Sequence record: NC_031928.1
Direction: 5' to 3' (one strand)
From: Escherichia phage WG01
Length of the DNA: 64,000 bases
Shown: positions 6,454 to 7,606 of the stretch, piece after piece
How the letters are laid out: each line of letters begins with the position of its first letter
How positions within the stretch are numbered: position 1 is the stretch's first letter
The notes under the pieces: model-generated
The model's input: the letters and a program-made list of their open reading frames with translations, nothing else
What the model was told of the DNA's origin: nothing
The model's database searches: none
Program-made: the position numbers and the translations under genes

Positions 6454-6762
6454 CTATTTTATTCCGCGTGATGCAATCGTATTCTGCCGTTTAACGCCAG
6501 TTTGTTTAAAGTTATGATTGTCGAGTTGATCGGTACGAGCAACTCCGAATGATGATTTAATCTTAGCTTTAGATCCTTTAGTTATAGAAATAAACATCTC
6601 GGGAGCCCCTTTCTTAAAGTCCGAAGCAATTACTTCAACACCGTTCTTAGCAAGTGACCTCAGAATTGCTTCCACATACTCATCATCAAGACCTGCTTGA
6701 GTATGAATAACGAATGTCTTTGGTGCAGCCGCTTCATTGATAAATTCTTGGTATGATTTCAT
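6454..6762 (-). CDS. internal head protein-like (CTS-bearing) protein
   Basis: N-terminus MKSYQEFINEA matches the T4 internal-protein leader; 102 aa. Confidence 0.6.
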   Translation of the reverse strand: MKSYQEFINEAAAPKTFVIHTQAGLDDEYVEAILRSLAKNGVEVIASDFKKGAPEMFISITKGSKAKIKSSFGVARTDQLDNHNFKQTGVKRQNTIASRGIK

Positions 6763-6792
6763 TTTATTTTCCTAATTAATTTTGATGAGATA

Positions 6793-6822
6793 ATAGTACC
6801 ACAACCCTATTTAAAAGTAAAC
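6793..6822 (-). promoter_or_regulatory. early-type promoter cassette
   Basis: GTTTAC, 18 nt, TACTAT on minus strand upstream of internal-protein-like ORF 6454..6762. Confidence 0.45.
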
Positions 6823-7095
6823 TCATTTTAAATAAATTGCATATTTTTTATAACCCGCTGTCTCATGACGAAGACCCTTATCATTAGCAAAACGCTCAAT
6901 GTTGTTAATTTGATTCTGGTCAAGTTCAGAGATGTCAAACACGAAAAAGTTACGTTTGTTGCCTAAAGTTACGTGATTAGTCAAATCGATGTTATAGAGA
7001 TGATTTATATTATCAATCATGGTCTTAACAGATTTGTTAATTTTTACTTCTTCATTAAGAATAGATTCAGCGATAAATTCTTGGTATGATTTCAT
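6823..7095 (-). CDS. internal head protein-like (CTS-bearing) protein
   Basis: N-terminus MKSYQEFIAES; 90 aa. Confidence 0.6.
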   Translation of the reverse strand: MKSYQEFIAESILNEEVKINKSVKTMIDNINHLYNIDLTNHVTLGNKRNFFVFDISELDQNQINNIERFANDKGLRHETAGYKKYAIYLK

Positions 7096-7096
7096 T

Positions 7097-7318
7097 TTAT
7101 TCTACGCCTGCGGCTTTCAAAAGTTTTTTAAGATTGGCTATGCCGCCAGCAGAAAACGTGACCTTGCCACCTTTTTCATTGATAGAGCCAGTCAATTTAG
7201 CAAGCTTATCACTAGGGACTTTTTTAAAATCAGCCAGTATGCCATCAAAGGTTTTTGTAACAACCGGCAGTTGGTCATGTTTTTTGGCTTCTGTAATAAA
7301 TTCTTGATAAGCTTTCAT
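7097..7318 (-). CDS. internal head protein-like (CTS-bearing) protein
   Basis: N-terminus MKAYQEFITEA; 73 aa; early promoter cassette upstream. Confidence 0.6.
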   Translation of the reverse strand: MKAYQEFITEAKKHDQLPVVTKTFDGILADFKKVPSDKLAKLTGSINEKGGKVTFSAGGIANLKKLLKAAGVE

Positions 7319-7356
7319 TTTTGATTTCCGTTTGGTTAGTTTGTTTTGATAGGTCT

Positions 7357-7385
7357 ATAGTATCATGCCTATAGACCTTGTAAAC
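7357..7385 (-). promoter_or_regulatory. early-type promoter cassette
   Basis: GTTTAC, 17 nt, TACTAT plus conserved AGACCTATCAAAAC; upstream of internal-protein-like ORF 7097..7318. Confidence 0.5.
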
Positions 7386-7396
7386 AACTTTTTAAA

Positions 7397-7606
7397 TTAT
7401 TTTAGCCATGAAGAATTTTCAGAGACCCAGCTATCTATATCTGATTGAGGGCCAAAGAAGTAGGCAACCCCATTAGATAACTCTCCTGAAAGCCAATTTA
7501 TACCTTTCAGGCTTTCTTTAAATTCTTCAGGAGTACAAGAAACCTCTATTGCCACCGAAGAGGCGGATTCCATTGCTTCCGTTAAGAATTCGTTGTAGGT
7601 TTTCAT
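7397..7606 (-). CDS. internal head protein-like (CTS-bearing) protein
   Basis: N-terminus [11 protein letters not shown]; 69 aa; start overlaps the stop of the 57B-like gene by 4 nt. Confidence 0.6.

Follow-up and report, generated by a model that had tools for sequence, protein, structure and literature searches.

The closest described relatives of the genes reported here, five small leader-bearing genes within a 64,000-nt stretch of the genome of Escherichia phage WG01 (NC_031928.1; this whole stretch is hereafter called the window), are the internal proteins (IPs) of T-even phages, the only phage effectors already present in the host when phage gene expression begins. Repoila et al. (1994, EMBO J 13:4181) reportedly described the hypervariable IP locus of the T-even phages, with Ip7, Ip8 and Ip9 of T2, RB15 and other phages. 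The T4 genes ipII and ipIII, located between denV and e, are small and non-essential, stand behind GTTTAC...TAnnAT promoter-hairpin cassettes, and code for head-packaged proteins with a 10-residue capsid-targeting sequence (CTS), MKTYQEFIAE, which is cut after Glu10 at [I/L]xE and before an A. T4 IPI is encoded in a different slot, between 57B (acb1) and trna.4, and its leader is longer (19 residues) and of different sequence (MKTFKEFTSTTTPVSTITE). Amber-suppressor mutagenesis of the IPIII leader by Mullaney and Black linked residues 4 and 7 to targeting and residues 8 and 10 to processing (for a review see PMC9026906). As to function, T4 Ip1, Ip2 and Ip3 each inhibit one variant of the type IV restriction enzyme GmrSD, with no cross-protection (PMC12373910), and IPIII is active from the cytoplasm without the CTS when a leaderless copy is supplied in trans. 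Inhibition of McrBC was described for Bas37_0260 (HIDEN-SEQ preprint 10.1101/2025.11.20.689424), which falls in the 'ipVI'/Ip6 family in our sequence comparison (MZ501089 145553..145786). All four IPs of known function (Ip1, Ip2, Ip3 and Ip6) are specific inhibitors that disable modification-dependent restriction enzymes with very narrow specificity. From the comparison given below, we consider it very probable that the five WG01 genes are T-even IP genes, of which the products would be CTS-tagged, packaged, cleaved by gp21 and injected as anti-defence cargo.

Five genes with a capsid-targeting leader

The initial annotation of the window described four consecutive small open reading frames (ORFs) downstream of 57B and a fifth at 3989..4453, all beginning with MK[STA]Y[QN]EF[IL]xE. 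A six-frame scan confirmed this start for all five, and the coordinates were exact, all on the minus strand. The genes, designated A to E, are as follows (aa, amino acids; pI, isoelectric point; vertical bar within a motif, predicted cleavage).

7397..7606, minus strand: A, 69 aa; cleavage FLTE|A; mature part 59 aa, acidic (pI 4.1)
7097..7318, minus strand: B, Ip8 family, 73 aa; leader MKAYQEFITE|A; mature part 63 aa, basic (pI 9.9)
6823..7095, minus strand: C, Ip9 family, 90 aa; leader MKSYQEFIAE|S; near-neutral
6454..6762, minus strand: D (102 aa), of the Ip7 family; leader MKSYQEFINE|A; mature part 92 aa, basic (pI 9.9)
3989..4453, minus strand: E, IP-like, 154 aa; cleavage FLTE|Q; mature part 144 aa, basic (pI 9.5)

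The six-frame scan gave no leader-type ORF in the 64-kb window other than these five, and the leader pattern was absent from all 200 shuffles of the window. The array directly follows 57B, as the initial annotation had it, with the start of A overlapping the 57B stop (ATGA), and C starts 1 nt after the stop of B (TAAAATG). Since all five are under purifying selection (pN/pS 0.03-0.42 against orthologs), A to E are real genes; on the same range the possibility of chance ORFs was rejected. The cargo parts were also claimed to be mutually unrelated, and this agrees with our comparison using a database of 8 sequences (the five cargos plus T4 IPI, IPII and IPIII), in which no significant similarity was detected among the mature parts of the five or between them and the three T4 proteins (all E > 0.07). 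Neither did any of the five resemble IPI* (PDB 2JUB), the GmrSD inhibitor, in searches that included the PDB sequences.

The leaders are identical or near-identical to that of T4 IPII and IPIII. M1, K2, Y4, E6 and F7 are present in all five, [I/L]-x-E occupies residues 8 to 10 in all five (FLTE|A, FITE|A, FIAE|S, FINE|A and FLTE|Q), and the residue that follows the cleavage site is small or polar in every case. For a wider comparison, 36 other 57B-anchored loci were surveyed, making 37 loci with the window, 74 leader ORFs and 60 distinct leader DNAs. Across the 60 distinct leaders, the conserved residues are M1, K2, Y/F4, E6, F7, I/L/M8 and E10, and position 11 is A, S or T. The proposal of a T4 internal-protein leader thus holds on alignment for IPII and IPIII (MKTYQEFIAE) and fails for IPI, of which the leader differs, while its interpretation as a capsid-targeting signal is supported by the match to the IPII/IPIII CTS and by the conservation of positions 4, 7, 8 and 10. 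Apart from this 10-residue CTS, with predicted cleavage after Glu10, the five share no detectable cargo similarity with IPII and IPIII, and they also differ in location, A to D standing in the ipI slot and E between e.8 and rnaC.

The head-assembly machinery on which such a leader depends in T4-like phages is coded within the window.

38082..38717, plus strand: gp21-type prohead (head maturation) protease (phrog_207, E 3e-76), the predicted leader-removing enzyme
38748..39563, plus strand: gp22-type scaffolding core protein (phrog_237) with many [LI]xE sites, the putative CTS-binding structure
37409..38082, plus strand: gp67 and gp68 prohead core proteins (phrog_1064 and phrog_1049)

The gp21 machinery and the gp22/gp67/gp68 core thus all lie at 37409..39563, and PHROG matches also identified the portal protein gp20, gp23 and gp24. 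The gp21 substrates of the window share the [I/L]-x-E motif of the five leaders (gp23, SFLTE|AEIGGDHGY; gp24, ELLRE|STT). In some E-family homologs the cleavage motif is present in tandem, MKSYAQFLNE-AVLNE-A, one [L]xE site following the other at a distance of five residues, which suggests alternative or sequential cuts by gp21.

Three of the five are, as judged by sequence comparison, already-named internal proteins, i.e. orthologs of Ip7, Ip8 and Ip9 of T2, RB15 and other T-even phages with the same leader in the same slot, from which they show no substantive difference apart from the combination A+B+C+D. D has 88% identity with the 'internal head protein 7' of T2 (Ip7) and matches phrog_2667. 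B is annotated as 'Ip8' in QL01 and 'ip8' in VR5, is about 81-93% identical to annotated Ip8/internal virion proteins and belongs to phrog_8765, 'internal virion protein'. C is 79% identical to RB15 Ip9 (UniProt Q38376) and matches phrog_7673 at E 2e-56. The PHROG labels for the B, C and D families read 'internal head/virion protein'. A and E appear to be unlabelled members of the same known class. A matches phrog_23867, 'unknown function', and is found in 27 phage records, where it is 'hypothetical' or without annotation (no annotation at all in JS98, JS10 and IME08); E matches phrog_2280, 'unknown function', and is found in 510 phage records, nearly all as 'hypothetical protein', and its Tequatrovirus homologs keep the CTS (MKSYAQFLNE|A).

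In the Dhakavirus references, a gap of about 650 nt between trna.4 and 57B is left without annotation (JS10 NC_012741 70424-71073; JS98; IME08); it holds an A-type leader ORF and, in JS98, also a 97-aa leader ORF. A second Ip7-like gene, about 50% identical, is present in IME08 (HM071924 59147-59437) and VR5 (NC_028881 58717-59007), about 12 kb away near the T4 ipII/ipIII position, a site that falls outside the window; a phage of this type therefore probably has six or more IPs in all.

In the course of events that we propose, the first 10 residues, M-K-[T/S/A]-Y-x-E-F-[I/L]-x-E, would serve as the CTS of a pre-protein, binding to the gp22 scaffolding core during prohead assembly and thereby incorporating the protein into the head. 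Cutting by the gp21 prohead protease after Glu10 at [I/L]-x-E would follow, and the freed cargo of 59-144 aa would remain in the head with the DNA, be injected with it and reach the host cytoplasm ahead of all phage gene expression. Each cargo would most likely bind and block one specific DNA-targeting defence, the most probable target being a type IV (modification-dependent) restriction enzyme. The genes would behave as independent cassettes, B and D with their own early promoter-hairpin units and E with a late promoter, A being translationally coupled to acb1 (57B) and C to B; phages would exchange these cassettes with one another through recombination at the repeated promoter units, possibly also at the leader itself.

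Cargo function and alternative roles

The description of T4 IPI as an anti-restriction effector is borne out by the inhibition of a GmrSD variant by Ip1 (PMC12373910). Because T4 Ip1-3 and Ip6 inhibit restriction, we infer an anti-defence role for A to E as well, and it is reasonable to regard all five as candidate injected anti-defence proteins; their packaging, cleavage, injection and anti-defence targets are predictions of the same kind.

For A, the comparison with Ip6 gives a more specific indication. A resembles Ip6/Bas37_0260 in leader, slot and small size, and both have GPxxxI[D/E]xWxxxN as a C-terminal motif, but A differs in its overall sequence (about 25% identity), in the absence of the 10-residue insert of Ip6 and in being far more acidic (pI 4.1 vs 6.5). 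The pairwise match reached E 6e-7 at 25% identity with the leader included, and E 0.002 by blastp without the leader. When the leader was removed, hhalign gave, on shallow profiles, a probability of 12.5% against Ip6 alone and 92-95% when the comparison was with the 78-aa intermediate type, either by itself or pooled with Ip6; control IP families gave 0.1-0.3%. A remote relationship between A and Ip6 is suggestive, not firm, and since the specificity of IPs is very narrow, the target of Ip6 cannot be transferred to A.

The Ip9 cargo, represented here by C, is found in three contexts. In T4-like phages it carries MKxYxEFxxE-type leaders; in Kagunavirus and Seuratvirus siphoviruses it forms a leaderless protein of 66-74 aa; and in Kuttervirus (ackermannvirus) it forms the C-terminal domain of a protein of 860-980 aa, e.g. 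SilasIsHot gp71. Because this cargo exists both with and without the leader, the leader behaves as a portable add-on, and the distribution suggests that T-even phages may turn captured cytoplasmic accessory or anti-defence domains into pre-delivered effectors by means of a 10-residue tag. The leaderless copies in the stretches examined are located at 2492-2716 in SHIN8 (Seuratvirus), 2507-2725 in a Kagunavirus and 2143-5094 (gp71) in SilasIsHot; that of SHIN8 bears the automatic annotation 'internal head protein', which was probably carried over wrongly from the name of the PHROG. The 984-aa Kuttervirus protein with a C-like C-terminal domain gave a sub-threshold VWA (CobT_C) match only.

These observations can be combined into a bolder proposal, in which E would be an overlooked injected protein with a target other than type IV enzymes, A an inhibitor of new specificity within an Ip6 superfamily, and captured domains would become effectors by tagging. 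The distribution of E is wide (about 510 T-even genomes, including Tequatrovirus, Dhakavirus and Mosigvirus-like phages), and it might act on a different first-response defence, or on a host factor located where the DNA enters. We regard the three parts together as rather unlikely.

Several results weigh against the identification of the five as injected anti-defence IPs. Pfam, PADLOC and PDB sequence searches of all five gave nothing above noise, and no known anti-defence or defence family in these collections matched any cargo. The AlphaFold2 (AF2) model of the C cargo is an αββαββ alpha/beta sandwich (pLDDT 78) and in that of E (pLDDT 72) a basic linker connects a small helical domain with a long helical hairpin, but fold searches with both returned generic or uncharacterised matches only. 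The A-Ip6 link comes from shallow profiles and a 40-column match. No usable virion proteomics for Ip7, Ip8, Ip9, A or E was found in the published literature. Finally, a perfect late promoter box precedes E alone among the five, with none before A to D; this last point is not discriminating, because T4 ipI is also without one. The E model, compared with BFVD, matched its own family and a protein of a T4-like Serratia phage only, with no likeness to IPII or IPIII.

The lack of resemblance to any known inhibitor would also be expected if the packaged proteins were mainly structural or physical agents, which neutralise the charge of DNA or aid its packaging or ejection and of which the sequence is largely irrelevant. 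In agreement with such a role, B, D and E contain many lysines and have a basic pI (9.5-9.9), and in T4 the head contains about 1000 IP molecules, the lysines of which contact DNA phosphates (PMC3012670). However, A is acidic and C near neutral; each family is under clear purifying selection, down to pN/pS 0.03-0.05 for C, a constraint that is not required of bulk counter-ions; the fold of C is compact and predicted with confidence; and the rapid presence/absence turnover between near-identical phages fits an arms race. Together with the fact that every IP of known function is a specific restriction inhibitor, this leaves a mainly physical role improbable.

Leader codons, promoter cassettes and turnover of the array

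A smaller probability is assigned to the possibility that the conserved 5' end is mainly a nucleic-acid element, either a translation-initiation or messenger RNA element or a patch of homology at which cassettes recombine. Short homologies suffice for recombination in T4 (PMC2839356). In the first 30 nt compared, the first 24 nt are identical between D (6733-6762) and C (7066-7095), and codons 3-4 of D (TCA TAC) follow its neighbour C and no D ortholog, differing from all 7 sampled. Against this, the five window leaders differ at no fewer than 8 of 30 nt, and synonymous sites vary across the 60 distinct leaders: all four Thr codons (ACT, ACA, ACC and ACG) are used at position 3, TAT (30) and TAC (17) at Tyr4, TTT (49) and TTC (11) at Phe7, and ATC, ATT and ATA at Ile8. 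The amino acids at positions 4, 7, 8 and 10 are fixed, and these are the residues needed for targeting and cleavage (PMC9026906). Since the functional residues are fixed and synonymous sites vary, the codon pattern argues that the leader is a peptide signal and not a DNA or RNA element; the 5'-coding regulatory element that the initial annotation had named as its own possible refutation is disfavoured on the same ground. A DNA-level element as the sole explanation was rejected on this survey. A role of the leader in recombination may add to the peptide role and cannot replace it; the identity of the D and C leaders may reflect gene conversion between adjacent genes, and the D codons 3-4 give a weak hint that the leader doubles as a homology patch.

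The predicted promoters and hairpins associated with the array and with E are listed below.

7357..7385, minus strand: PeSL-like cassette (see below) upstream of B, in which a hairpin (GGTCTATAG...CTATAGACC) overlaps an early promoter of sigma-70 type, GTTTAC-N17-TACTAT
6793..6822, minus strand: cassette with an early promoter (GTTTAC-N18-TACTAT), placed upstream of D and near-identical in its downstream part to the T4 ipI cassette
6413..6442, minus strand: early promoter/hairpin cassette, upstream of trna.4; a direct repeat with 6793..6822, flanking cassette D
4480..4487, minus strand: late promoter box of the T4 type, TATAAATA, perfect in sequence and located 26 nt before the start codon of E
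about 4490-4519, minus strand: terminator hairpin that precedes the late box of E
3967..3986, minus strand: terminator-like hairpin just downstream of E

The window contains 7 GTTTAC-N17/18-TACTAT sites, against 0.15 expected. The terminator and TATAAATA late promoter ahead of E are kept in Tequatrovirus homologs, e.g. Sf21. T4 ipI, ipII and ipIII stand behind the same early promoter-hairpin cassettes with no perfect late box close by, and the ipI upstream cassette is homologous to that of D; because the three T4 genes share it, this early-cassette architecture is typical of IP genes. That some of the five, especially A to D, are ordinary early cytoplasmic accessory proteins with a leader vestigial for packaging is the least probable alternative: the early sigma-70-type promoters of B and D without a perfect late promoter and the leaderless existence of the C cargo in sipho- and ackermannviruses would suit it, but the packaged T4 ipI, ipII and ipIII have the same cassettes, a vestigial leader would decay whereas the functional residues are invariant in every sampled family and genus, and the leaderless versions of the C cargo occur only in phages without the T4 head-assembly system.

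Intergenic cassettes composed of an early promoter and stem-loop (PeSL) are known from RB49 and phi1 through the work of Arbiol et al. (2010, PMC2839356). Like these, the window cassettes combine a predicted strong sigma-70-like promoter with a hairpin placed between or over the -35 and -10 elements and flank variable small genes; in the window they flank the D insertion as direct repeats.

The cluster had also been called polymorphic, and the survey agrees, with about 22 cargo families among the 74 leader ORFs. A to D, four of the five genes, occupy the space between 57B and trna.4, the classical hypervariable ipI slot of T-even phages, and E is in a different conserved slot, e.8-rnaC. The two anchors of the ipI slot are as follows.

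7603..8058, minus strand: 57B, an acb1 homolog, a 2H phosphodiesterase with HxT...HxT motifs (HSTICYS...HITLSY); the conserved left anchor of the array
6199..6384, minus strand: trna.4 homolog, a 61-aa membrane protein; the conserved right anchor of the slot

T4 57B is Acb1, the anti-CBASS cyclic-nucleotide phosphodiesterase, and the array adjoins 57B in a recognised anti-defence island (PMC9117128). Four genes in this slot are the maximum of the sample, the 36 other loci holding 0 to 3; the combination A+B+C+D was found in none of these, and A+B+C is present also in IME341 and IME281. Alignment with the closest Dhakavirus relatives identified D as extra, a promoter cassette and D being added between C and trna.4, and both cassettes that flank D are closer to the T4 ipI and trna.4 cassettes than to those of the Dhakavirus relatives. 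The arrival of D is consistent with an exchange of cassettes in which the repeated promoter units served as sites of recombination. In OLB35, a leaderless 'ip7 protein' of 77 aa joins the middle of Ip7 (D) as its N-terminal 45 residues to the end of Ip9 (C) as its C-terminal 33, and appears to be a product of illegitimate recombination within an IP array.

Much of this is textbook T-even biology, partly annotated in related genomes. The unlabelled CTS families A and E, the suggested A-Ip6 link, the unusually long four-cassette array and the leaderless relatives of Ip9 are what the present analysis adds. The A and E families have been missed by current annotation, although E occurs in more than 500 sequenced phages, and the five genes of the window form a small, convenient set with which IPs can be matched to defence systems; what is gained in practice is improved annotation and a short list of candidates for work on host range and phage therapy, with no new principle involved.

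Setting of the locus and neighbouring features

The WG01 window is that of a JS98/QL01-like (Dhakavirus) T-even phage. For the stretch 3300-8400, the nearest record is QL01 (identity 96% over 88% of the stretch), and no record matched it along its full length in nucleotide comparison. On the minus strand the order is gene 1, 57A, 57B, A, B, C, D, trna.4, trna.3, trna.2, a small ORF, tRNA-Met, tRNA-Arg, the rnaD/rnaC homologs, E, a membrane-protein ORF and e.8. In RefSeq records of relatives, 57B is labelled 'RNA ligase', probably the name of a fold family and not of a function.

Homologs of rnaD and rnaC, the T4 small stable RNAs (species 2 and 1), are located at 4523-4830 on the minus strand, between tRNA-Arg and the terminator and late promoter of E, and over about 290 nt are near-identical to their T4 counterparts. 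When 3300-8400 was scanned with Rfam, the two tRNAs alone were reported, and no model detected these homologs. Directly downstream of the E terminator, at 3390-3965 on the minus strand, stands an ORF of about 184-191 aa with an N-terminal hydrophobic segment, which is 'hypothetical' in QL01 and JS10; T4 has e.7/e.8-adjacent genes at the same position.

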